Counted from the stretch's first letter, positions 8,808 to 64,000 are shown. The stretch: 64,000 nucleotides of DNA from an uncultured Armatimonadia bacterium (GCA_964555935.1 CAZKUN010000007.1:22474-86473), one strand, 5' to 3'. Notes: generated from the sequence alone by a model not told the origin. Numbers and translations are program-made.

Positions 8808-11800
8808 TTACCTGGTCACGACCTCAATCTCCGATAGCCACATCAGGTCCGGCCGGTCCTTCGACCCCTTGCCGGCGGGCTGTAGAATCCGCACCCGCCT
8901 TACTGGGTCGCCCGGTAGCTGTATCGTCACCAGCCCAGCTTCCCCACCCGCCCCAAACGTCTGCCCTGCCACGGCGGCCCAGGCATCGTCGCGCGGCGCC
9001 TCGGCGACAAGTTGCCGCGGCACGTGCAGTGTCTTCCCATCTAGCCCCGCCCACAGACGGATCTGCGTCACCCGCGTCGGCGCCGGGAAGCGCAACTCGA
9101 TCCAGTGCGCGCCCTGGTGCTCGTTCGACGCCCACGCCACCTTCGTCCAGTCAGGGGTCTTTGGGTTGATCTTCCCGTCGGTCAGCACGGTCGGCGTGTA
9201 GCCGCCGAAGTTGCCCTCAACGACGACGATGGTGCCCTGTGGCATCTTGCCGGTGGTCGCTTTGTACTGCTTGGGGCCAGTGGTGACGCGGGGCGCGCTG
9301 AGGGCGACCAATTCAGTCAACCGTGACGCGCGCTGGGGGGGGCGAGCCTTGGCCTCCACGCACGCCTTCGCCAATTCGGTGTGGAAGCGCAGATCCTCGG
9401 CGTCTCGCCGGGCGCGCTCAGTGTCCGCGCCCCAGTCCGTGCCCTGCACGATCTGGTCCATTTCGTCAAGAGCCGCGAACCGCGCGTCCCAGTCGAGCTG
9501 GTCAAATCGTGCGTCCGCCCCGCCGCCGATCTGGGCGCACAGTTCAACCAGACGCTCCGCCTCCGCGCTCGTGCCGGCGAGCGGACGTGGTTCGCCGCCG
9601 CCCTCGAATCCTGGACGCGATAGCAGCCCGTCTTCCGGGGCCTCCGCCAGCGCGACATGCACGTCATCGAAATACGCGGTGCCCGTGTGTCCACCACGGA
9701 ACAGCACGTAGACGTTGATGTTGCGGATTGGTTTCTCGGGCGCGATGGCGATCTCGCCGCGCTCCCAATCATGCGTCCCGGTGGCAAACTCGATCGTCTG
9801 CCCGTAGATCGCCGTGCCGTCGGTGTAGTAGCAGTCCACGTAGACGGCGTAATTGTTGTTCGGATCGCCGGTTACGCCCTCGGCTTTGCTCCACGCGGAC
9901 ACAACGATATCGCGAGGCTCCTCGTGGTTGACCGTCACGGTCTGCGTGGCCCCCGCCGCGCCCGCCTCGTCCTTCTCCACGCGCAGGCAGTGGTCGCTGC
10001 CACGCCCTGGCGACCCAATGCTCGCGCCGGCGCGGTATGGGGCCCATGGCGCGAGTTGCTCGCGGCCCTCGCGGCACGCGGACACGTAGGCGTTGCGACG
10101 CTTGGCGACATCCGCAGCGCGACGCAGCGCCGCGCGGGCCTGGGGGATGGGGTAACCGACAGCCCAGACCTGAAGGTCCTCGCCGGTCATCTCAGTGGCG
10201 AGCGTCCCTGCGATACGCTCGACGCGGCCGGTCAGCAGCTCCACGCCTAGCAGAGGCGGCTTCGGATCCGCCTCGCCGCGGTACGGGATGTCGTCTAAGA
10301 CAACGCGCTGGGCCTGCGCCTCCGCCACGTCTGCCCTGGGATCCGTGGAAAGCGTGAGGTACTGCAAGTGCTCCTCCGCCAGATCGCTGCCGGTTGAGAT
10401 GTAGTGGGGCGCTTCCATCGGTCCGAATGACTCCACGAACGCATCGCCCTCGGTGATCTGGCCAATTGGCACGGCGTCCCAACTCGCTACGAGGAGTTCT
10501 CTCGCCACCGGCATGTATCGCCTGAAGAGCGCTCGGTCGCGGTCGTACCACTCCGGATGCACCCAGTAACTAGAGCCTGGATTCGCGCCCGACGGGGTGA
10601 TGTCGAAGAACCCGAAGAGAATCGCGTATGCGGTGCATCGGCGCATGTATGTCTCGAGCTGCGCCTGCGTGATCTGGTCGAAGTCGCCCTTCACGAGTGT
10701 GCAGAATGGCTTTGAGCCAAGCAACCCGCGAATCAGCCGACACGTGTCGCGCCGCAGGTAGATGCTCATCTCCGCGCCCGGGACGTCGATGTACGGGCCA
10801 ACGAACGGGAACGAGGCGAGGCTTGAGTCGTTGAGCATCGTCTTCTTTCGCACCGGCGTCAGCCCCGGTATGTTGAGCTGTTCGTGGATGTGACGAGCCC
10901 ACTCGACGCTGCTCCACAGGTTGTAGTTGACCGGGCGGCCAAGCGTCCCGTCCCACAGCAGCAGATGGTCAGCCGCCCTCAAGTGCTCGGGCGCGTAATC
11001 CAGCCCGGCGGCGATGCCGTCGTAGTAGACGCCATCGATCCCCGCTGGCCATTCCTCCGCGTTGACGCGCGCCAGGAGTCGATCAGCCATCGCCTTACCG
11101 TACGGGAGGTCGGGATCGACACACGCCTGACAGAAGAAGTCGCCATACGTCCGCTCCGCCCGGTAGGCGATTCTTCCCTCCGCCGTCTGGATCCCGCAGG
11201 TCTCCCACGTGCCCTCAAGGCCCGTATGGCCCTTGGCGACCACCTCGAATGCGGCGACGACATCCTCGTATGACGGTTGCGGCTCCGAGCCGCGCTCGTA
11301 TCCATCGACATTCGCGAACTCGCCCGCGCAGTGGAAGTAGACGAAGGTCTCAGCGCCGAGATTATCGTCAAACGACGCGTTGGCTCCACCCTCCTGGAAT
11401 CCGAAGCCGAACTCGTCGACATTCTGGATCTTGCCCAGGTCGGCGAACGGCATCCAACCGCCATAGTCGCGCCACCCGAGCGGACCCGATGCCGACCCGC
11501 CAACTCGGTTCGTCCGCGCTAGCGCCTCCCGCATCGACCGGCCCTCGGCCGCAGGCCCCGCCACGTATATCAGCTCAAACTCCGCCTCGCGGCTAGGGTC
11601 GGTGAACTCGCTCAGTGCCAGGTCGACCTCCGCCGACAGTCGCGGAGAGTCGCCGCCGACCGCGGAGAATCGGACGAGCGCAAGTTGCCTCATATCCCTG
11701 GCAAGCGCCAGGTACTCGCCGCCCTTCTCCACGGCCCCCAGTGGATATGTCGAGTAGCGTCCGTATTCGGGCTTCTCAGCCTCATCATCGAAGTACGGCA

Positions 11801-55247: not shown

Positions 55248-56531
55248 ATGACAACCGTACTTGATAGAGATAAGGAAGCGCTGAAGAATGTCGAGCTGAT
55301 GATCCTCGAGCAGGACATGCCGAGCGAGAAGCTCGATGATCCGGCGGCGGCGATGCGAGAGGCCGTTTGCTCATCAGGCCTCCCCGCGCGCATCAAGCCG
55401 GGCATGAGCGTATGCATCGGCGCCGGCAGCCGCGGCATCGCCAACATGCCGATCATGCTGCGGACAGTCGCCGAGATCGTCCGCGAGCAGGGCGCGGAGC
55501 CCTTCTTCATCCCCGCGATGGGCAGTCACGGCGGCGCGACCGCCGGGGGCCAGTTGGAGTTGCTCGGCGACCTCGGTGTCACCGTCGAATCGGTGGGGGC
55601 TCCGATTCGGGCGACGATGGACACCGTCCAGCTCGGGGAGACGCCCCAGGGCGTGCCCGTCTTCATGGACAGGTACGCTGCCGCCGCCGATGGCGTCATA
55701 GCCGTCAACCGCATCAAGTCTCACACAGACCATCGCGGCGTGACCGAGAGCGGCCCCACCAAGATGCTCGCCATCGGTTTCGGCAAGCAGCAGATGGCCT
55801 CGCGGGTTCACCCGTACGGCGCCGATGGGCTGACGAACATCATCCCCGCCGCGGCCGAGATCATGCTCCGCGAGCGCCCCGTGCTCGGCGGTATCGCCAT
55901 CATCGACAACGCCTACGCCCAGACCGCCGAGATCCACGTGCTCGAACTCGATGGTTGGCGCGAGGCCGAAATCAAGCTCCTCAAACGCTCCAAGGAACTC
56001 GCCGGGAGCCTGCCGTTTGATGTCATCGACGTCTGCGTCCTGATGCGCATCGGCAAGGAGATCAGCGGCACCTGTCTCGATGCCAATGTCGTCGCTCGCA
56101 TCATGATGGATGGCGTCGAGGAGCCGCCCTCGCCCAAGATTCACACCCTCGCCGCGCTCGATCTCACCGATGCCTCCCACGGCAACGCGGTCGGAATCGG
56201 GCTCTGCGACGTGACGGTCAAGCGCCTGGCTGACAAGATCGACTTCGACGCGATGTACACAAACGCCATCACGGCAACATTCTTCAACCGCTGCAAGCTG
56301 CCGATGGTCCTGCCGACCGACGAGCGCCTGCTTCAAGTCTCTCTCGGCACGCTCGACGACCATCGCCGCGTGGCGCCGAGGCTGTGCATCATCGAGGACA
56401 CGCTGAAGCTCGACCGCCTGTGGGTCTCGCCCGCGCTGGCCGAGGATGCCAAGGACAATGCCAACGTCCGCGTCGTCTCGGGCCCGCACCCGCTCGCATT
56501 TGACGATGAGGGCGCGCTGAGCCTGCCGTAG
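55248..56531 (+). CDS. LarA-like (DUF2088, lactate racemase N-terminal domain) / DUF362-like protein
   Basis: IKPG...GAGSRGIANMP and NRIKSHTDHRGVTESGPTKM resemble the LarA KPG and HxxxxGxSGGxK blocks by recall. No larB/C/E nearby. Confidence 0.5.
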   Translation: MTTVLDRDKEALKNVELMILEQDMPSEKLDDPAAAMREAVCSSGLPARIKPGMSVCIGAGSRGIANMPIMLRTVAEIVREQGAEPFFIPAMGSHGGATAGGQLELLGDLGVTVESVGAPIRATMDTVQLGETPQGVPVFMDRYAAAADGVIAVNRIKSHTDHRGVTESGPTKMLAIGFGKQQMASRVHPYGADGLTNIIPAAAEIMLRERPVLGGIAIIDNAYAQTAEIHVLELDGWREAEIKLLKRSKELAGSLPFDVIDVCVLMRIGKEISGTCLDANVVARIMMDGVEEPPSPKIHTLAALDLTDASHGNAVGIGLCDVTVKRLADKIDFDAMYTNAITATFFNRCKLPMVLPTDERLLQVSLGTLDDHRRVAPRLCIIEDTLKLDRLWVSPALAEDAKDNANVRVVSGPHPLAFDDEGALSLP

Positions 56532-56546
56532 CGAGGAGCGACGAAA

Positions 56547-58127
56547 ATGGTCGCGTGTAGACTATCGATTGCCCTCGCGGCCCTGTCGGTCGCGACCCTT
56601 GCAGCCGCCCAACGCCCGCTGCCTTGGAGGGGACCGGACATGCCCAAGATGACGGGTCTGATCCAGAACCAGGACTGCACCGACTTCTTCGGCCAGCACG
56701 ACGTCGCCGGCGGCGACGGCGGCGCGATGCTCGACGCCTACATCGACACCCTCGCCGAGGCGGGCGTGACGGTGATGATGGTCAACACCAACGCGCGCAA
56801 GACCAACTACAAGAGCGATGTCTGGGAGTCGTTCTGGGACGGCTACGATCCCGAAGGCGCCGACGACCAGCCCATCTTCGCGTCGATTCCCGCCGACCGC
56901 AGGGACGGCTATCGGAAGCTGATCCATAGCATGTGGGCGCTGGACGACCAAGGCGTCGATTACCCCGCCCGGGCCGCTGAGCACTGCCGCGCGCGAGGGA
57001 TCTCGCCGTGGATCACCCTCCGCATGAACGACGTGCATGATAACGACAACCTCGCCCACCCCTTCCACGGCGAGCTGTGGCGAGACGCGAAGTACCATCG
57101 AGGCGGGCCGCCGACTTACTATTCTCGCGGCCTCGATTACGCTCACCCGGAGGTCCGAGAGACTTACCGCACCCTCGTCTCGGAGACCCTTTCGCGCTAC
57201 GATATCGACGGACTCGAACTCGACTTCATGCGCGAGCCATACCTCTTCAAGCCCGGCGCCGAAGAGGAGGGCGCGAAGATCCTCCGCGAGTGGCTGCGTG
57301 GCGTCCGCCGCCTCGTTCACGACGCGAGCGTCCGGCGCGGGCACCCAATCTACCTCGGCGTCCGCGTCCCGTCGCGGATCGATGTCGCCCAGAGCTGGGG
57401 CCTCGACGCCGTCGGCTGGGCGAAGGACGGTCTGGTCGACCTCGTCGTGCCCACGCCCCGCTGGTCGACACTGGAGTACGACATGCCACTGGCCGAGTGG
57501 CGCGAAGCCCTCGACGGCACGGGAGTCACGCTGGCGGGCGGGCTTGAGGTGCTGCACAGGCCGCTGCCGAACGGTCCGCCGGTCCATGTCTCAACCGCGC
57601 AAGCCGCGGGCGCGGCCGCCTCGGTACTTGCGGGCGGCGCGGATGTGGTGTACCTCTTCAACTACTTCGCGCGCGACGGCTCCCACCCGGCGTGGTCGCG
57701 CGAGGATTACATCCGCACGCTGGACGCCATGTCGTCGCTCGTCGCGCTGAACGCCCTGCCCCGTCGTCACGCCATCACCTGGCGAGACATCACCGGTCGC
57801 GACGAGGCGTATGCTCCGCCGTTCCCGGCGGAGGGTGAGACGCTGGAGTTCGCCCTGCCGACCAGCCCGCCGCCACCCGAGGGAGCCTCGGCGTCGGTTG
57901 AGATCACCCTCGCGCAACCTCCCTCCGCGGAAGCCCCGGCCGAACTCTCGGTCAACGACCAGCCCTGCGAGTTCGATGGGCAGACGGCCAAAGGTGACGC
58001 CGAGACGGTTCTGAGATACACTGTCTCTGTCTCGGCCCTCGGCGCCGACCCGCATGACCGCATCACGATCCGCGCGACCGGCGGCAGCATCCGCGTCGTC
58101 GGCGTCGAGATCGCGATCACGCCATAG
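56547..58127 (+). CDS. secreted glycoside-hydrolase-like TIM-barrel protein (GH-like, DUF4015/GHL-type)
   Basis: Signal peptide. Acidic catalytic-type motifs (GLELDFMREP). Aromatic-rich. Confidence 0.55.
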   Translation: MVACRLSIALAALSVATLAAAQRPLPWRGPDMPKMTGLIQNQDCTDFFGQHDVAGGDGGAMLDAYIDTLAEAGVTVMMVNTNARKTNYKSDVWESFWDGYDPEGADDQPIFASIPADRRDGYRKLIHSMWALDDQGVDYPARAAEHCRARGISPWITLRMNDVHDNDNLAHPFHGELWRDAKYHRGGPPTYYSRGLDYAHPEVRETYRTLVSETLSRYDIDGLELDFMREPYLFKPGAEEEGAKILREWLRGVRRLVHDASVRRGHPIYLGVRVPSRIDVAQSWGLDAVGWAKDGLVDLVVPTPRWSTLEYDMPLAEWREALDGTGVTLAGGLEVLHRPLPNGPPVHVSTAQAAGAAASVLAGGADVVYLFNYFARDGSHPAWSREDYIRTLDAMSSLVALNALPRRHAITWRDITGRDEAYAPPFPAEGETLEFALPTSPPPPEGASASVEITLAQPPSAEAPAELSVNDQPCEFDGQTAKGDAETVLRYTVSVSALGADPHDRITIRATGGSIRVVGVEIAITP

Positions 58128-58150: not shown

Positions 58151-58996
58151 ATGGAGTTCCGAGTGAGGCTGGCGCAGATAACGCCGACGCTGGGCGATGT
58201 CGAGGCCAATCTCGAACGGCACCTGGAGATCATCGGCGACGCGGAAAGCGCCGACATCGACCTCGTCGTCTTCCCGGAGATGAGCCTCTGCGGCTACCAT
58301 GTCCGCGATCTCGCGGCGGAGGTCGCGCTGGTCGATGGTTCGCCTCAACTGGGCGCGCTCGCCGCTGCTACCACCAAGACCTCCGCCGTCGTGGGCTATG
58401 TCGCGGAGTCGCTGAGTTACGAGTTGCACGTGGCGGCCGGCTACTTCGACACGGGGAATCTCCTGCACGTGCACCACAAGATCTACCTGCCGACTTACGG
58501 CATGTTCGACGAGCAACGCTACTTCGCTAACGGGCACCACGTCCGCGCCTTCGACGCGCGCCTTGCGCCCATGGGGATGCTCATCTGTGAGGACGTCTGG
58601 CACCCGTCAAACCCCTACATCCTCGCCCACGACGGCGCGCAGGTGATCGTCGTCATCGCCAACAGCCCCGCCCGAGGCCCGCGTGACGGCAGCTGGGACA
58701 CCGCGGAGGCGTATGAGGCGATGCTCCGCACGTACGCCGAGCTGTTCGGGTGCTATGTCATCTTCGTGAATCGCGTCGGCTATGAAGAGGGCATTCACTT
58801 TTGGGGTGGCTCGCGCGTCATCGCTCCCAGCGGCGCTGAGGCTGCCCGCGCGCCACTGGGCGAGGAAGCTCTCGTCGATGCCACCATCGATCTCGAGCAA
58901 GTGCGACTGGCCCGCATCGCCACGCCGCTCCTGGCCGACGAAAACCTGGACCTGACCATTCGAGAGTTGAAGAGGATTCGCGATGAGCGCGCTTGA
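58151..58996 (+). CDS. carbon-nitrogen hydrolase (nitrilase superfamily); glutaminase subunit of split NAD+ synthetase
   Basis: E-K-C triad context: [24 protein letters not shown]. Ends 14 nt inside the next ORF. Confidence 0.8.
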
Positions 58997-59804
58997 CATC
59001 GACTGCCCTCTGGTTGAGCAGACCCTCTGCGGTTTCATCAACGAGGAGATCGGCAAATTCGGCGTGGGCAAGGCCGTCTTCGGCATGTCCGGCGGGATCG
59101 ACTCCACCGTCTCCGCCTACCTTGCCGCGCGGGCTCTCGGGCCTGAGAACGTGCTGGGCATTATCATGCCATACAAACTCAGCAACCCCGAAAGCCAGGC
59201 GCACGCCGAACTGGCCGCCGTCGACCTCGGCATCGAGACGCTGGTTGTCGACATCACCCCAATGATCGATGCCTACTTTGAGGTCTTCCCCGACGCCGAC
59301 AACTCCCGGCGCGGCAACAAGATGGCTCGCGAGCGCATGACGATCCTCTACGATCACTCCGCTCGCCTGGGTGCCATGGTCCTTGGGACCAGCAATAAGA
59401 CCGAGATCCTCCTCGGCTACACGACGATCTGGGGCGACATGGCCAGCGCCATCAACCCGATCGGTGACCTCTACAAGACCCAGCTCTGGCAGCTTGCCCG
59501 CCATCTCAACGTGCCCGCGCCCATCATCGACAAGAAACCCTCGGCCGACCTCTGGGAGGGCCAGACCGACGAGGGAGAGTTGGGATTCACCTACGAGGAT
59601 GTCGACAAAGTCTTCTACGAGCTAATCGACCGCCGCCGCAAGGTTGATGAGATCGTCGCCGATGGCTTCGACCGGGCTTTCGTCGAGAAAGCCTATCGCA
59701 TGGTCCGCGATTCACAATACAAGCGGCGCATGCCTCTCATCGCGAAGCTCTCACACCGCAGCATGGACCGCGACTTTCGTTACTCGCGCGACTGGGGTCG
59801 GTAG
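58983..59804 (+). CDS. nadE: NAD+ synthetase (NadE) synthetase domain
   Basis: PP-loop SGGIDS. NadE blocks GTSNKTE, YGD, P-loop context. Start overlaps the CN-hydrolase stop. Confidence 0.85.
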
Positions 59805-59826: not shown

Positions 59827-60096
59827 ATGCCCTTCTCTCGTGACACGTCCCCCGAAGCTCGCGCCATCCTCATCAAGAGGATGCGTGAGATGACGCCAAC
59901 CGAGAAGTCGCGCCAGATGTGGGCGCTCACCCATACAGCGCGAGAGCTGTCACTTTCCGGCATCCGGCACCGTTACCCCGACGCAACCGACGATGAGATC
60001 CGTTGGCGCTTTACCGCTCTGCTGCATGGTAGGGACACGGCGCGGAAGATGTACGGATGGGACCCGGACGAGACCGGAGGCGATCATGACGGCTGA
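59827..60096 (+). CDS. hypothetical small protein (89 aa), translationally coupled to the downstream nucleotidyltransferase
   Basis: ATG 59827. Stop overlaps the downstream ATG (ATGA-type overlap at 60086..60096). Confidence 0.4.
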   Translation: MPFSRDTSPEARAILIKRMREMTPTEKSRQMWALTHTARELSLSGIRHRYPDATDDEIRWRFTALLHGRDTARKMYGWDPDETGGDHDG

Positions 60097-60480
60097 GCAA
60101 GACGCCGCCCTCCGAGTCCTGGAGATACTCGAGGACATGGGTGTCGGCTACGTCGTCGGGGGATCGTACGCCAGCTCTGTGCACGGCGTGCCTCGCTCAA
60201 CGAACGACTTGGACCTCACGGCGGCGAGGTCTCCGATGTTCAGTGGCGCGACGTGCTCCAAGTGCTCGTAGCGCAGGCCAGCCGGCTCGACATGGGGTAC
60301 CTTCATCAGGAAGCACAGCGGATGGGTCTGGACGTTCTGCTCATCGCTGCTCTGGACGAGGCCGAGCAGGCGCGCCAGACCGAATGGCCGGAGCCGTCTT
60401 CGCCCTCATGCCCGACCCGAGGATGTGGTAAGACTTCCGTACAGGTCACCACACCGTTACGAGGGCGCGTGGGCGCATGA
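60086..60480 (+). pseudogene. minimal nucleotidyltransferase (MNT-like) interrupted by a frameshift near 60225-60250
   Basis: Frame 2 encodes GGSYASSVHGVPRSTNDLDL (NTase G[GS]x9-13DxD core) and stops at 60271. Frame 1 from about 60202 continues with a typical family C-terminus DVQWRDVLQVLVAQASRLDMGYLHQEAQRMGLDVLL. Confidence 0.5.
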
Positions 60481-62036
60481 AACTCCGTCGCTTGCTGATC
60501 GCCGCGTACGTCATTGCCGGCGCCTTCGGGCTCGCGGCGACCGTATTCTGGCTGCGTCCGGGGCACGCGGCGCCCGATACCGTCCGATTGGCGCCCTTGG
60601 GCCTCGGTTTCGCGCTCGTGGCCGCCCTCACCACCGCGAACCTCCTCGTGCGCTGGCTGCGCTGGCACCTCCTGACGCGGTGTCTGGGGCTGTCCGTGCC
60701 CACGCGGTTGAGCGTCCGTCTCTACGCGGTCACGCTACCCACGCTGGCCACTCCGTTCTCCGCAGGCGAACTCATACGCGTCGCCCTATTGGCCCGGCAC
60801 CATCCTGGTCGGCGGGTTGGCCGCGCGGCCACGGCCGTCTGGATGCTTGAGCGGCTGTCCGACGTGATCGCCTTGGGCTTCTTCGTGCTAGTCGCGGTTC
60901 AGGCGTGGTCGCTGGTTGCCGCAGGCCTGCTGATGCTGGGAGCCCTGGGCTACCTGCTCCGGAATCGTCACGCGCTTCTCGAGCCCGCGTCGCTTGTTGG
61001 CATCGCCACGAGTACGGTCTTCGCATGGTCGCTGCCCATCGCTGGGCTCTGGGCGATGTTTGCCTTGCTCGGGGAGCCTATCACGGCCGCCGCCGCCGCG
61101 TATGGCTTCTCGAAGGGGACGCTCTGCGGCGGGTTGACGGGAGTGCCGATGGGTGCCGGCGTTGCCGGCTCGGCGATGATCGTCCACCTCCGAGCCGCTG
61201 GAGCCGCGGCGAGCCTGACCCCGATCGCCATCGCCGCATTTCGCGCCGCCACGGCGTGGTACGCCGTTGCGTTGGGGGCCCTGGTGCTCGTGCTGTGGCG
61301 CCGCGAGATCAGCGCCGGAGCCCCGGTTGGGTCGCGCCACTTCGACGAACTCGCACCAGCGTATTCGGAGGAAATCCCCGAGCATGTCCGCGCGCGACTG
61401 CTCGAGCGCAAGACAAGCGCCATGCGTGACGGCTTGGGCGATCTCCCCCCTCAATCCACGCACGGTCTAGACATCGGCTGCGGCCAGGGATGGTACGCGG
61501 AGGCAATGGGCTCTGAGGGCTATGATATGCTCGCCTGCGATGCCTCGTCCGGCCAGATTGGCGCCGCGCGAGCCGCTGATGGTGTCGACGCCGTCGTCGG
61601 CGACGCCACGGCATTGCCCTTTGATGCCGGCCGCTTCGACTTCGCCTACAGCATCAACATGATCCACCACATCGGTGATGCGGGCGCCCAGGAAGAAGCC
61701 CTCCGCGAGGCAATTCGCGTTCTGAAGCCGGGCGGCCGTTTCTTCCTGCACGAAATCAACACGGAGAACCCGCTCTTCCGCTTCTATATGGGTTACGTCT
61801 TCCCGCTCGTCCGCCGGATCGACGAGGGCACCGAGCGGTGGGTCCGCCCATCTCGCCTGCCTGAGGTGGACGGCGCCACGTGGTCGACGCAGGTCCGCTA
61901 CATGACCTTCATCCCAGACTTCGTACCCGCATCACTCATGCCGCTTGCCGCCAGGCTCGAATCTTGGCTTGAGCGTTCGTCGCTGCGCCAGTGGAGCGCG
62001 CACTACATCGCCTGCCTCACGAAGGAGGCGGGTTAG
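60477..62036 (+). CDS. fusion: flippase-like multi-TM domain (lysylphosphatidylglycerol-synthase TM region / UPF0104-like) plus class I SAM methyltransferase (Methyltransf_11)
   Basis: About 300-aa polytopic N-terminus. C-terminal LDIGCGQGWY motif I, acidic motif II (CDAS), VLKPGGRF motif. Confidence 0.7.
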   Translation: MKLRRLLIAAYVIAGAFGLAATVFWLRPGHAAPDTVRLAPLGLGFALVAALTTANLLVRWLRWHLLTRCLGLSVPTRLSVRLYAVTLPTLATPFSAGELIRVALLARHHPGRRVGRAATAVWMLERLSDVIALGFFVLVAVQAWSLVAAGLLMLGALGYLLRNRHALLEPASLVGIATSTVFAWSLPIAGLWAMFALLGEPITAAAAAYGFSKGTLCGGLTGVPMGAGVAGSAMIVHLRAAGAAASLTPIAIAAFRAATAWYAVALGALVLVLWRREISAGAPVGSRHFDELAPAYSEEIPEHVRARLLERKTSAMRDGLGDLPPQSTHGLDIGCGQGWYAEAMGSEGYDMLACDASSGQIGAARAADGVDAVVGDATALPFDAGRFDFAYSINMIHHIGDAGAQEEALREAIRVLKPGGRFFLHEINTENPLFRFYMGYVFPLVRRIDEGTERWVRPSRLPEVDGATWSTQVRYMTFIPDFVPASLMPLAARLESWLERSSLRQWSAHYIACLTKEAG

Positions 62037-62037
62037 C

Positions 62038-63573
62038 GTGCTGAGACGGCTCATACTCGTGCTCGCCTGGGCCCTTGCGATCGCCTGGGCCGTCACCTCC
62101 CTGTGGCACCCGTTTGGCCGCGACCAGGGCATCTTCGCCTGGGTGGGCGACACCATCTGCGACGGCGGCATGCCCTATCGCGATGCGTGGGAAGTCAAGG
62201 GCCCGCTCGCCGTCTACCCCTACGCGCTGACCCAAGCTGTCTTCGGCCGACAGATGTGGGCTATCCGCGTCCTCGACCTCATCCTCCTCGCCCTGGCTGC
62301 CGGGTCGCTCTACCTAATCGCGCGTCGCTTGTCGGGCGCCTTCGGAGGGCATGTGGCGGCGATTCTGCTGGTCATCTGGTACGGCACTCATGATTACTGG
62401 AACACCGCCCAGCCTGATGGCGCGGCGGCAATGCTTATGGTGCCGGCGATCGCGGCTCTGCTGTTGGGGTCCGAGCGCAGGTCGACGATCTGTCTCGGCG
62501 TGTCGGGTATCCTGGTGGCCGCGTGCGTCCTGCTCAAGCCGATCTATGGCGCGTTCCTCGCGCTCCCCATTGGATGGATCGTCCTGACAGCCCGCGGCGC
62601 GCGTCGATCCTCCGGATTGCTCGCATGCGCGTCTGGCTTTGTTGGCACCATCGGGCTCGTGGCGGCATGGTTTGCCTATCGAGGCGCGCTGGGCGACCTC
62701 ATCGAGGTCCAGTTCTCATTCAACCGGATCGTCCACCTCGCTGCCCACAAGCGCACCTTCGCCATGGCTCTTGGCGAGACGCTGGTCCATGGCAAGACCT
62801 ACTACGCCGCCGTCGCCGCGCCGCTCGCGGTCATCGGGCTTGGGTCCCTGGCGCGCAAGGACAGCCCGGCGCTCGCGCTGATCGCCGGCTGGGCTGCGAT
62901 AGCCCTCGCGTGCGTGTTCATCCAGGATAAGTTCTACGATTACCACTGGCTCATCATTCTCCCCCCACTCGCGCTGGTGGCGGCCCTTGGGGTCGCCGCT
63001 GCCGAGGGCCTGATCGAGCGCCCCTCCCAGTCGGATCCGCCCCGCTCACCCGTCGTGTCGCCATGCATCCTGGCCGTCGTGTTGGTCTTCACGGCTGGGC
63101 GCTTGGTGGGCACGGTGGAGCCCTTCGCGCGCGCGATCAAGACCGGCTCCTTTGCCAACTACTACGAGGGATTCGGCGGAGTGGGGGACTTCTCGTACGC
63201 CGCCGACCGCCAGGTCGCCGACTATCTGGGACGCCATTCCGCTGAGAATGACGCCGTCCTGGTGTGGGGTTTCGAGCCGATCATCAACTACCTCAGCGCT
63301 CGCCGAGTGCCGACCCGGTTCGGGTACAATTACCCCCTGACGCGCGGCGCGCAGAACCCATTCAACGAATCATACCGTCGCGAGTTCATGGAGGAACTGG
63401 CCGCATCGCCGCCGCTGTACATTGTCGTCGCCGACCAAGACGCCAACAACCTCATGCCGAAGACATCGAAGGAGTTTCTGCACGAGTTCCCCGAGTTGGA
63501 GTCCTACATCCACGACCACTATCAGCTCGAAGTGACGATCGAGGACTTCGACCTCCACCGCCGATCCCCGTAA
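62038..63573 (+). CDS. GT-C fold membrane glycosyltransferase (ArnT/PMT, GT39/GT83-like)
   Basis: GTG 62038 with gaaggagg RBS 10 nt upstream. Polytopic N-terminus with first-loop D-rich motif (RDQGIFAWVGDTICDGGMPYRD). Soluble C-terminal domain. Confidence 0.65.
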   Translation: MLRRLILVLAWALAIAWAVTSLWHPFGRDQGIFAWVGDTICDGGMPYRDAWEVKGPLAVYPYALTQAVFGRQMWAIRVLDLILLALAAGSLYLIARRLSGAFGGHVAAILLVIWYGTHDYWNTAQPDGAAAMLMVPAIAALLLGSERRSTICLGVSGILVAACVLLKPIYGAFLALPIGWIVLTARGARRSSGLLACASGFVGTIGLVAAWFAYRGALGDLIEVQFSFNRIVHLAAHKRTFAMALGETLVHGKTYYAAVAAPLAVIGLGSLARKDSPALALIAGWAAIALACVFIQDKFYDYHWLIILPPLALVAALGVAAAEGLIERPSQSDPPRSPVVSPCILAVVLVFTAGRLVGTVEPFARAIKTGSFANYYEGFGGVGDFSYAADRQVADYLGRHSAENDAVLVWGFEPIINYLSARRVPTRFGYNYPLTRGAQNPFNESYRREFMEELAASPPLYIVVADQDANNLMPKTSKEFLHEFPELESYIHDHYQLEVTIEDFDLHRRSP

Positions 63574-63733: not shown

Positions 63734-63766
63734 AAGGGCTCTCCCCGCGCATCGAGGAGAGCCCTT
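63734..63766. terminator. 11-bp perfect-stem hairpin (AAGGGCTCTCC / GGAGAGCCCTT, 11-nt loop) between convergent genes
   Basis: Seen directly. Lies between the GT-C gene stop (63573, +) and the H-X9-DG gene stop (63819, -). Flanking U-richness is only modest on either strand. Confidence 0.4.
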
Positions 63767-63818: not shown

Positions 63819-64000
63819 CTACGGTCCGGCGTACTTATTGCTGGTGAGCGTGTCGAACTCCCAGTACTGCACCTTATTTCGGAACTTGACGTGCCCGTCG
63901 ACGAAGACAAAGTTGTTGCCCCCGTTGTGAATGGCATAGGCCGGATTGCCAGCGTGGAAGTTGGTGACCCAGGGAATGCCCCACGTTCTGGGGCAGACGC
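63819..64000 (-). CDS. C-terminal fragment of H-X9-DG (DUF1559) prepilin-like protein; 5' part lies outside the window
   Basis: Reverse translation from the window edge gives ...AIHNGGNNFVFVDGHVKFRNKVQYWEFDTLTSNKYAGP*. H-x9-DG spacing is exact. Stop at 63819-63821. Confidence 0.6.
   Translation of the reverse strand, partial: VCPRTWGIPWVTNFHAGNPAYAIHNGGNNFVFVDGHVKFRNKVQYWEFDTLTSNKYAGP

Follow-up and report, generated by a model that had tools for sequence, protein, structure and literature searches.

The window analysed here, a stretch of 64,000 nucleotides from an uncultured Armatimonadia bacterium (GCA_964555935.1 CAZKUN010000007.1:22474-86473), encodes a 519-residue protein in which a flippase-like membrane domain of the PplT (LPG_synthase_TM) family is fused to a domain that, by its sequence, is a class I S-adenosylmethionine (SAM) methyltransferase. 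Its gene is followed by that of an ArnT-like glycosyltransferase of the GT-C type. The two-domain architecture of the fusion is real and conserved across many phyla, and the family that shares it is widespread yet uncharacterised. Our tentative reading of the gene pair is that of a translationally coupled module for extracytoplasmic envelope glycosylation, in which the fusion would act as an MprF-like "modify-and-flip" enzyme. The features concerned, counted from the first letter of the window, are the following.

60477..62036, + strand: fusion gene (PplT/LPG_synthase_TM plus class I SAM methyltransferase), a single unbroken open reading frame (ORF) with an ATG start, 519 residues
60477..61316, + strand: flippase-like membrane domain, residues 1-280, from PF03706, TIGR00374 and the helices of the AlphaFold (AF2) model
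61338..61757, + strand: linker helices and methyltransferase Rossmann core, residues 288-427, from Methyltransf_11, PDB profiles and Foldseek
61758..62033, + strand: family-specific C-terminal lid, residues 428-519, from column conservation and invariant residues
62021..62028, + strand: ribosome-binding site GAAGGAGG, inside the 3' end of the fusion gene, 9 nucleotides before the GTG of the GT-C gene
62038..63573, + strand: ArnT-like GT-C glycosyltransferase, GTG start, 511 residues, PMT_2
62122..62124, + strand: codon of GT-C residue D29, the invariant Asp of P-x-G-R-D-Q-G, directly after the first transmembrane (TM) helix
63736..63764, no strand: GC-rich hairpin GGGCTCTCC-11 nt-GGAGAGCCC, 9 bp, between convergent stops, from sequence and RNA fold

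Architecture, distribution and structure of the fusion protein

Pfam placed residues 20-157 of the fusion in LPG_synthase_TM (PF03706; profile positions 9-158 of 302, E 1.8e-12, 47.8 bits against a cut-off of 33.4) and residues 331-424 in Methyltransf_11 (PF08241; E 6.2e-21, above the gathering score), in agreement with an earlier reading made from the sequence alone (hereafter the sequence-only reading), which had proposed both domains. The NCBIfam model TIGR00374, "flippase-like domain", matched residues 169-279 (profile 208-318 of 323) with 32.4 bits, below its cut-off of 43.2. The aminoacyl-phosphatidylglycerol synthase domain of MprF (DUF2156, PF09924) was not found in the fusion with Pfam, and the protein is thus not an MprF proper. 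Besides the family profile, the C-terminal domain showed the other marks of a class I SAM methyltransferase, namely a Rossmann fold, with strands alternating with helices over residues 329-427 of the AF2 model, the glycine-rich motif I LDIGCGQGWY (residues 331-340), and an acidic residue after strand 2. NCBIfam methyltransferase matches all fell far under the equivalog cut-offs.

A word-indexed search returned 145 homologous proteins. The 120 listed were nearly all 520-580 residues long, and most of them carried both PF03706 and methyltransferase domains in precomputed annotation; the best identity to the window fusion among the matches listed was 49%. These homologs bear names such as "methyltransferase domain-containing protein" or "UbiE/UbiG-like" and come from sources that include Vicinamibacterales, Luteolibacter arcticus, Kiritimatiellae, Planctomycetota, Myxococcales, and Binatia. 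An exhaustive profile search over 1.84 billion representatives yielded 628 clusters (50% identity) at E<=1e-30, the best-scoring of which were almost all 500-600 residues long and spanned profile positions ~6-534, that is, both domains. The shorter profile matches that were read retained the PplT membrane-domain motifs, which argues against an alternative N-terminal domain. Two motifs of the C-terminal lid served as family-specific search patterns, and when the GTDB species were scanned with one genome each, at least 159 genomes from roughly ten phyla proved to encode a relative; the carrier groups include Planctomycetota, Acidobacteriota, Gemmatimonadota, Verrucomicrobiota, Myxococcota, Chloroflexota, and Leptospiraceae, and Luteolibacter arcticus (locus L086) is a cultured carrier.

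That an assembly, frameshift, or annotation error joined two separate genes is virtually impossible, and this explanation was rejected, with no point found in its favour. The fusion is one uninterrupted ORF in the window and again in 80 genomic loci of relatives, over 100 independent clusters, drawn from different sources, agree in a two-domain length of 520-580 residues, and the AF2 model shows two confidently predicted domains; an architecture that is invariant over ~628 clusters is not a frameshift or assembly artefact. The sequence-only reading had named two outcomes that would overturn it, membership of the membrane region in another family and an artefactual fusion; the region belongs to PF03706, and the fusion holds throughout these clusters. 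Apparent triple fusions of GT2, PplT, and methyltransferase were rejected as well, since the long ORFs concerned had over-extended starts. No characterised family member and no functional study of the family was found in the literature. The preprint that named the MprF flippase domain "PplT" lists SAM-dependent methyltransferases among its rarer fused domains, without a function. The suggestion that the fusion was undescribed therefore survives for its function but not for its architecture, which is already visible in that census and in databases holding hundreds of copies.

Conservation was read from an alignment of 41 fusion homologs (A1). In the membrane domain, the motifs N-L-x-x-R-W-x-R-W-H-x-L-x-R, T-P-F-x-x-G-E, and E-R-x-x-D stood out; R59, R62, W63, R68, G97, and R126 were invariant, and T92, P93, E98, E125, and D129 nearly so. 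Mean counts of lysine plus arginine were 5.9, 3.1, 3.1, and 2.6 in the loops assigned to the cytosol (59-81, 105-117, 162-169, and 276-287) and 1.3, 0.6, 0.2, and 0.2 in those assigned to the periplasm (27-37, 141-143, 198-203, and 241-247). This positive-inside pattern suggests that both termini of the fusion are cytosolic and that the methyltransferase, as the sequence-only reading expected of it, lies in the cytoplasm, on the side where SAM is available. We infer a membrane domain of six transmembrane helices and two re-entrant hairpins with the tips TPFSAGE and GGLTGVPMG.

The conserved charged residues R59, R62, R68, E98, R126, and D129 lend indirect support to a putative flippase or scramblase activity of this domain. 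It is distinctly improbable that the PF03706-like domain is a mere anchor or lipid platform for a lipid methyltransferase without transport, whose product would stay in the inner leaflet or be moved by, for example, DedA. Such an arrangement would accord with the co-occurrence of DedA/VTT proteins, candidate lipid transporters, in eight loci; moreover, flippase activity is not readable from sequence, and the family profile did not detect the solved MprF structures, kinship with which is visible only via the Pfam family model. The charged residues named above, together with E125, nevertheless lie in or next to helices and are invariant or nearly so across phyla, which is more than a passive anchor needs, and in the characterised fusions of this domain, MprF and AglD, the partner is without exception an enzyme whose lipid product is active across the membrane.

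The AF2 model of the fusion (predicted local distance difference test, pLDDT, 91.7; predicted template-modelling score, pTM, 0.89) comprised helices to residue 280, two linker helices on the cytosolic side at 288-320, the Rossmann core at 329-427, and a helix/strand lid at 432-516. The linker helices upstream of the core carry the motif H-F-D-x-I-A-x-x-Y, and in the SAM-binding core G330, D332, G334, C335, G336, G338, D355, H397, and H398 were invariant. Within the lid, E426, N431, F434, Y437, Y440, P443, G451, E453, F478, P480, E495, L498, E499, and H509 were invariant, and the motifs N-P-L-F-R-F-Y-M-G-Y-V-F-P-L, D-E-G-T-E-R-W, F-x-P-D-F, L-E-x-x-L-E, and S-A-H-Y were recognised. Mean column identity was higher in the lid (0.64) than in the Rossmann core (0.59) or the membrane domain (0.45). 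The lid, presumably the substrate pocket, is thus the best-conserved part of the protein, which points to one specific substrate.

Foldseek searches of the fusion against the PDB gave generic class I methyltransferases only. The best matches over the whole methyltransferase domain were 2avn, 2gs9, and 1vlm, followed by TleD, AtmM, RebM, and phosphoethanolamine N-methyltransferases, with target-normalised TM-scores of up to 0.78. In the PDB profile search, RebM (E 5e-23) and AtmM (E 7e-22) were the closest characterised relatives of the Rossmann core, ahead of the phosphoethanolamine N-methyltransferase 5wp5 (E 1.1e-19) and the phosphatidylethanolamine N-methyltransferase 8ys9 (E 2.7e-12). The invariant pair H397-H398 aligned with the LHH of RebM and AtmM, which are sugar 4'-O-methyltransferases; the histidines of RebM we take to be catalytic. 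These two enzymes share with the fusion the Methyltransf_11 domain and the HH motif after strand 4, but they are soluble, act on glycosylated indolocarbazoles, and have neither the family lid nor a membrane domain.

The GT-C glycosyltransferase and gene neighbourhoods

The fusion gene stops with TAG at 62034-62036, and the GT-C gene starts with GTG at 62038, one nucleotide after that stop. The sequence-only reading had pointed out this spacing together with a strong ribosome-binding site, and both were borne out (GAAGGAGG at 62021-62028); the spacing implies translational coupling of the GT-C. The GTG start fits the N-termini of 34 aligned homologs, which disfavour an upstream TTG at 61945. 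The genes preceding the pair are a CN_hydrolase, an NAD synthase, an antitoxin-like ORF, and a frameshifted nucleotidyltransferase-like remnant, while the hairpin at 63736-63764 probably marks the operon end, although no T-run follows it and a consensus terminator scan gave no call there. The upstream genes, the hairpin, and the convergent downstream gene together indicate a two-gene operon.

Residues 54-190 of the GT-C matched PMT_2 in Pfam (PF13231; E 2.7e-9, 37.9 bits against a cut-off of 26.1), and 94 homologs carry names such as GT39, ArnT-family, or RgtA/B/C/D-like. The AF2 model (pLDDT 92.1, pTM 0.92) found its best Foldseek match in ArnT of Cupriavidus metallidurans with undecaprenyl phosphate (5f15; E 4.8e-8, TMq 0.62), and further matches were 5ezm (ArnT), STT3, PglB, AglB, AftA, DPY19, ALG9/12, AftD, and Pmt4. 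An assignment to the GT39/GT83 (ArnT-like) type, made beforehand from the sequence alone, is consistent with these results: the protein combines the family profile with the GT-C fold, in which an external C-terminal domain follows a polytopic N-terminal module, and with a conserved acidic residue in the first external loop. Among 35 homologs D29, D49, K54, Q125, K167, and Q296 were invariant, and by analogy D29 is a candidate for the catalytic or donor-binding Asp. The structural neighbours all use lipid-phosphate-linked donors, and a polyprenyl-phosphate-linked sugar donor is likewise predicted for this GT-C.

Gene neighbourhoods were compared in 80 relative loci plus the window (81 in all), in which ORFs were called and then clustered by BLAST. 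The ORF calling was crude (longest ORF, scored by GC content at the three codon positions, with starts often over-extended), and TM helices were counted with a simple Kyte-Doolittle threshold. A polytopic protein, defined as at least 400 residues with at least seven predicted TM helices, directly adjoined the fusion gene in 46 of the 81 loci. Such proteins made up 31% of the genes at positions +/-1 and 6% of those at least five positions away (Fisher odds ratio 6.6, p=3e-14), and about 30 of the adjoining partners lay on the same strand at -4 to +8 nucleotides, typically in an ATGA-type overlap. Those that could be identified with Pfam or NCBIfam belonged to several GT-C families: PMT_2, PMT, GT87, a weak ALG10-like match, and, below threshold, the "LA_3751/LA_3752 putative glycosyltransferase". 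GT87 neighbours the fusion in the cultured Luteolibacter arcticus. In six loci of Pirellulales/Sedimentisphaerales (L011, L014, L017, L018, L019, L021), a 708-residue GT-C with PMT_2 and TPR domains lay directly upstream of the fusion, with a gap of 0 nucleotides in five and of 82 in L021. A DUF362 protein follows in L014, L017, L018, L019, and L021; the window itself contains a Lar_N/DUF362-like ORF (55248-56531, ~4 kb upstream), for which no homology to these DUF362 neighbours was detectable.

The arrangement of the window, with the fusion followed within 1-3 nucleotides by the same GT-C subfamily, recurred in L029, L081, L002, L005, and L038. As an obligate partner this subfamily was rejected, as it adjoined the fusion in only 5 of the 80 related loci by tblastn or clustering; three of four inspected more distant homologs of the window GT-C did not lie beside a fusion gene.

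Genes for the supply of lipid-linked sugars also occurred in these neighbourhoods. GT2 proteins with C-terminal TM helices, of the polyprenyl-phosphate-sugar synthase type, were present in 14 loci, UbiA-HAD fusions in 4, and DedA/VTT proteins in 8; a synthase of either kind (GT2 or UbiA-HAD) lay within 10 kb of the fusion in 18 of the 81 loci. The UbiA-HAD fusions, which link a HAD phosphatase to a UbiA prenyltransferase and are encoded a few genes from the fusion gene in L029 (6448-8058, minus strand), L069, L066, and L053, are of the polyprenyl-phosphate phosphoribosyltransferase type known from the arabinan and ribofuranose three-component systems, and that of L029 adjoins the same fusion-then-GT-C pair as is found in the window. 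The gene order in Acidobacteriota was PMT-like (minus strand), DedA, GT2, fusion, the partner family c1, and GDSL paralogs; in L085, genes for making heptose-type and galactofuranose sugar nucleotides are present in addition.

The two commonest partner families, c1 and c3, have no Pfam match. Family c1 (~900 residues, 12-14 TM helices) carries the loop motif GGDEPHY, invariant as G-D-E-P-x-Y-L in alignment A5, and is encoded directly downstream of the fusion in Acidobacteriota (for example L075:11521-14232, L057:2693-5407, and L085:10698-13373). In its C-terminal region it groups with GDSL/SGNH-type lipase paralogs (plus an HYR domain) that are encoded as separate proteins downstream, and the sub-threshold NCBIfam match to the Leptospira LA_3751/LA_3752 protein is its sole name. 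Family c3 (~696 residues, ~12 TM helices) has an NGDGAHAFE motif, invariant as N-G-D-G-x-H-A-x-E in alignment A4, and gave no match in Pfam, NCBIfam, or PDB profiles. Its members were recorded at L052:11626-13713, L054:7833-9920, and L041:7626-9869 and in 11 further loci. It is an immediate neighbour of the fusion in 13 loci, often with a 4-nucleotide overlap, in for example Gemmatimonadota, Planctomycetota, and Chloroflexota. Local hhalign joined only the PMT_2-type clusters c11, c13, c15, and c25 to one another. From the name of c1 and the Asp-containing loop motifs of both, c1 and c3 are candidates for new GT-C families.

Proposed mechanism and known systems

In the scheme that we favour tentatively, the cytosolic methyltransferase would first act on a substrate anchored in the membrane and methylate its head group. 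The most likely head group is the sugar of a polyprenyl-phosphate-sugar, supplied by a GT2- or UbiA-type synthase whose gene would lie elsewhere in the genome. The fused MprF-type (PplT) scramblase or flippase domain would then move the methylated lipid to the outer leaflet, where the ArnT-like GT-C may take it as donor and transfer the (methyl-)sugar to an envelope acceptor. What we infer here is that the substrate is a polyprenyl-phosphate-sugar, that it is O-methylated, that the membrane domain transports it, and that the GT-C uses the product. That many GT-C families share one fusion partner, with one highly conserved lid, is more readily explained if what they have in common is the donor and not the acceptor. 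A methylate-flip-transfer logic had already been put forward in the sequence-only reading; the recurrent coupling to polytopic and GT-C partners, and sometimes to synthases, speaks for it, but the linkage to GT-C proved not to be universal. A bolder version, which we regard as doubtful, is that the family represents the first dedicated lipid-linked sugar methyltransferase-flippase, one that would O-methylate a polyprenyl-phosphate monosaccharide on the cytosolic face and hand it directly to its own scramblase domain, with interchangeable GT-Cs installing the methylated sugars outside, on envelope polymers. Were that so, three-component glycosylation would have a fourth component that has gone unrecognised until now.

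Several known systems resemble parts of this scheme. MprF also has a PF03706/PplT membrane domain N-terminal to a cytosolic lipid head-group enzyme whose product ends up displayed in the outer leaflet; in vitro, PaMprF behaves as a promiscuous scramblase. Its enzyme, however, is a tRNA-dependent DUF2156 aminoacyl transferase instead of a SAM methyltransferase; the window fusion has no extra membrane-helix block, its methyltransferase following directly after residue 280, and the conserved partner of its family is a GT-C glycosyltransferase. In AglD of Haloferax volcanii, too, a PplT/UPF0104 domain is fused to a cytosolic enzyme that works on a polyprenyl-phosphate sugar: AglD loads mannose onto dolichol phosphate, and after delivery to the outside the mannose is transferred by AglS at the outer face. 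In AglD the fused enzyme is an N-terminal GT2 synthase, whereas in the window it is a C-terminal methyltransferase. AglP, a SAM methyltransferase of the same dolichol-phosphate pathway, differs in being separate and soluble. The Agl system (with AglR) is archaeal and the window family bacterial; archaeal UPF0104 genes neighbour PMT/STT3-like enzymes and AglD-like GT2s.

Three-component systems (GtrA/GtrB/Gtr*, ArnC-ArnD-ArnEF-ArnT, polyprenyl-phosphoribose) also combine a GT-C with a dedicated lipid-donor flippase, which is drawn from several unrelated families; the window flippase differs in belonging to the PplT family rather than to GtrA, SMR, or MATE, and in being fused to a methyltransferase. 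Deformylation by ArnD in the Arn pathway is a cytosolic modification of the donor before flipping, and we know of no methylation step in three-component glycosylation systems. The GpgSDF (P. aeruginosa) and HexSDF (C. difficile) systems pair a glycosyltransferase and a tailoring deacetylase with a stand-alone UPF0104/PplT flippase and thus tailor and then flip, a logic that the HpnI/K/L-type cluster follows too. Their glycolipids, in contrast, are end products with no GT-C acting after them, and the deacetylase is a separate protein, not a fused methyltransferase.

The variety of flippases in three-component systems (GtrA, SMR, MATE) makes a PplT in that position plausible without any methylated donor. 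The two activities could then be co-localised and chemically independent, with PplT flipping an unmethylated donor for the GT-C in the role of GtrA or ArnEF and the methyltransferase acting at the membrane surface on some other target, such as a cytoplasmic glycan precursor, an acceptor precursor, or a protein. AglP, which methylates a sugar within a dolichol-phosphate-linked oligosaccharide and not the monosaccharide donor, would be a precedent, and the Wzx-like flippase and second methyltransferase in the L085 cluster show a more complex glycan assembly nearby. We nevertheless consider this arrangement unlikely. The fusion is invariant over ~628 clusters, its pTM of 0.89 suggests a fixed domain arrangement, and the most conserved part, the lid, is rich in aromatic and hydrophobic residues and looks membrane-interfacial; taken together, these properties are easier to explain by the direct hand-over of one lipid substrate.

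A number of observations weigh against the proposed glycosylation module. For PplT/MprF domains, experiments have demonstrated glycerolipid substrates only, and the methyltransferase core is generic, its PDB relatives spanning N-, C-, and O-methyltransferases. GT-C adjacency is missing in ~40% of the loci, L088 (Kiritimatiellia) has no GT-C nearby, and neither Pfam nor hhalign nor PDB profiles gave a link between c1 or c3 and GT-C. In L087 a downstream CDP-alcohol phosphatidyltransferase of the phospholipid type (10617-11435) overlaps the fusion gene by 4 nucleotides and replaces the GT-C. Finally, GT2, UbiA-HAD, and DedA genes were not found in the 64-kb window, either with neighbour-built hidden Markov models on six-frame ORFs or with tblastn. 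Three-component glycosylation in the strict sense, with the synthase encoded alongside flippase and GT-C, is therefore not what the window contains; it holds at best a two-component remnant relying on a synthase encoded elsewhere.

Some of these points fit an MprF-like phospholipid or aminolipid head-group methyltransferase-flippase, to which we assign a low probability. Such an enzyme would N- or O-methylate a glycerolipid or aminolipid (e.g. phosphatidylethanolamine), PplT would expose the product, and the GT-C would be unrelated or use the flipped lipid as acceptor. Along with the glycerolipid substrates and the loci without any GT-C, the interaction of the E. coli PplT protein with phospholipid-synthesis enzymes and the lipid-type N-methyltransferases 5wp5 and 8ys9 among the PDB relatives of the core are in line with it, and the L087 neighbour is the main hint of a phospholipid-related role in at least one branch. 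As a recurrent partner, the CDP-alcohol phosphatidyltransferase was rejected, since it occurs in none of the other 80 loci. The dominant neighbours are instead polytopic proteins (several of them GT-C), polyprenyl-phosphate-sugar synthases, and DedA, and sugar O-methyltransferases score equal to or above the lipid N-methyltransferases.

If the modify-and-flip proposal holds, the MprF principle would extend from phospholipid charge modification to glycan-donor supply, and one branch of the large, mostly uncharacterised PplT/UPF0104 family would gain a substrate class. It would also explain how O-methyl sugars could get into those envelope glycans whose assembly takes place outside the cytoplasm, away from any SAM. 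Under the phospholipid explanation, the family would instead be an MprF analogue of a new, lipid-methylating kind, and membrane biologists would find that about as interesting. For experiments the family provides a defined handle, being a two-gene module with clear targets for point mutation and having a cultured carrier.

Other features near the operon

Upstream of the fusion gene, the window contains an 89-residue ORF (59827-60096, + strand) with a weak, sub-threshold match to an Rv0078B-like antitoxin (E 0.013). It is overlapped by a nucleotidyltransferase-like ORF (60086-60271, + strand) with weak, likewise sub-threshold matches to DUF2204 and aminoglycoside adenylyltransferase, which seems frameshifted or internally deleted, its C-terminal part running on in another frame to ~60430. 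The region 59827-60430 is possibly a decayed toxin-antitoxin pair. Farther upstream, a CN_hydrolase of the glutaminase type (58151-58996) and an NAD_synthase (58983-59804), both on the + strand, are separate genes overlapping by 14 nucleotides and look like a split glutamine-dependent NAD synthetase.

At the other end, positions 63819-64000 (minus strand) hold the 3' end of a convergent gene with its stop at 63819-63821. The final 59 residues of its product, which include the stretch NFVFVDGHVKF, show a weak match (E 0.017) to the C-terminal H-X9-DG region of DUF1559/SBP_bac_10; proteins with DUF1559 are typical of Planctomycetota.

At 56547-58127 (+ strand) the window encodes a putative glycoside hydrolase, secreted and GHL10-like, whose gene lies upstream of the fusion gene by three predicted protein-coding genes plus the decayed toxin-antitoxin-like remnant. 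GHL6/GH42M/GHL10-like proteins are also encoded convergent to the fusion in two Vicinamibacterales loci (L003:5447-7693 and L004:11614-13836), and these neighbours may reflect coincidence or a link to glycan turnover.

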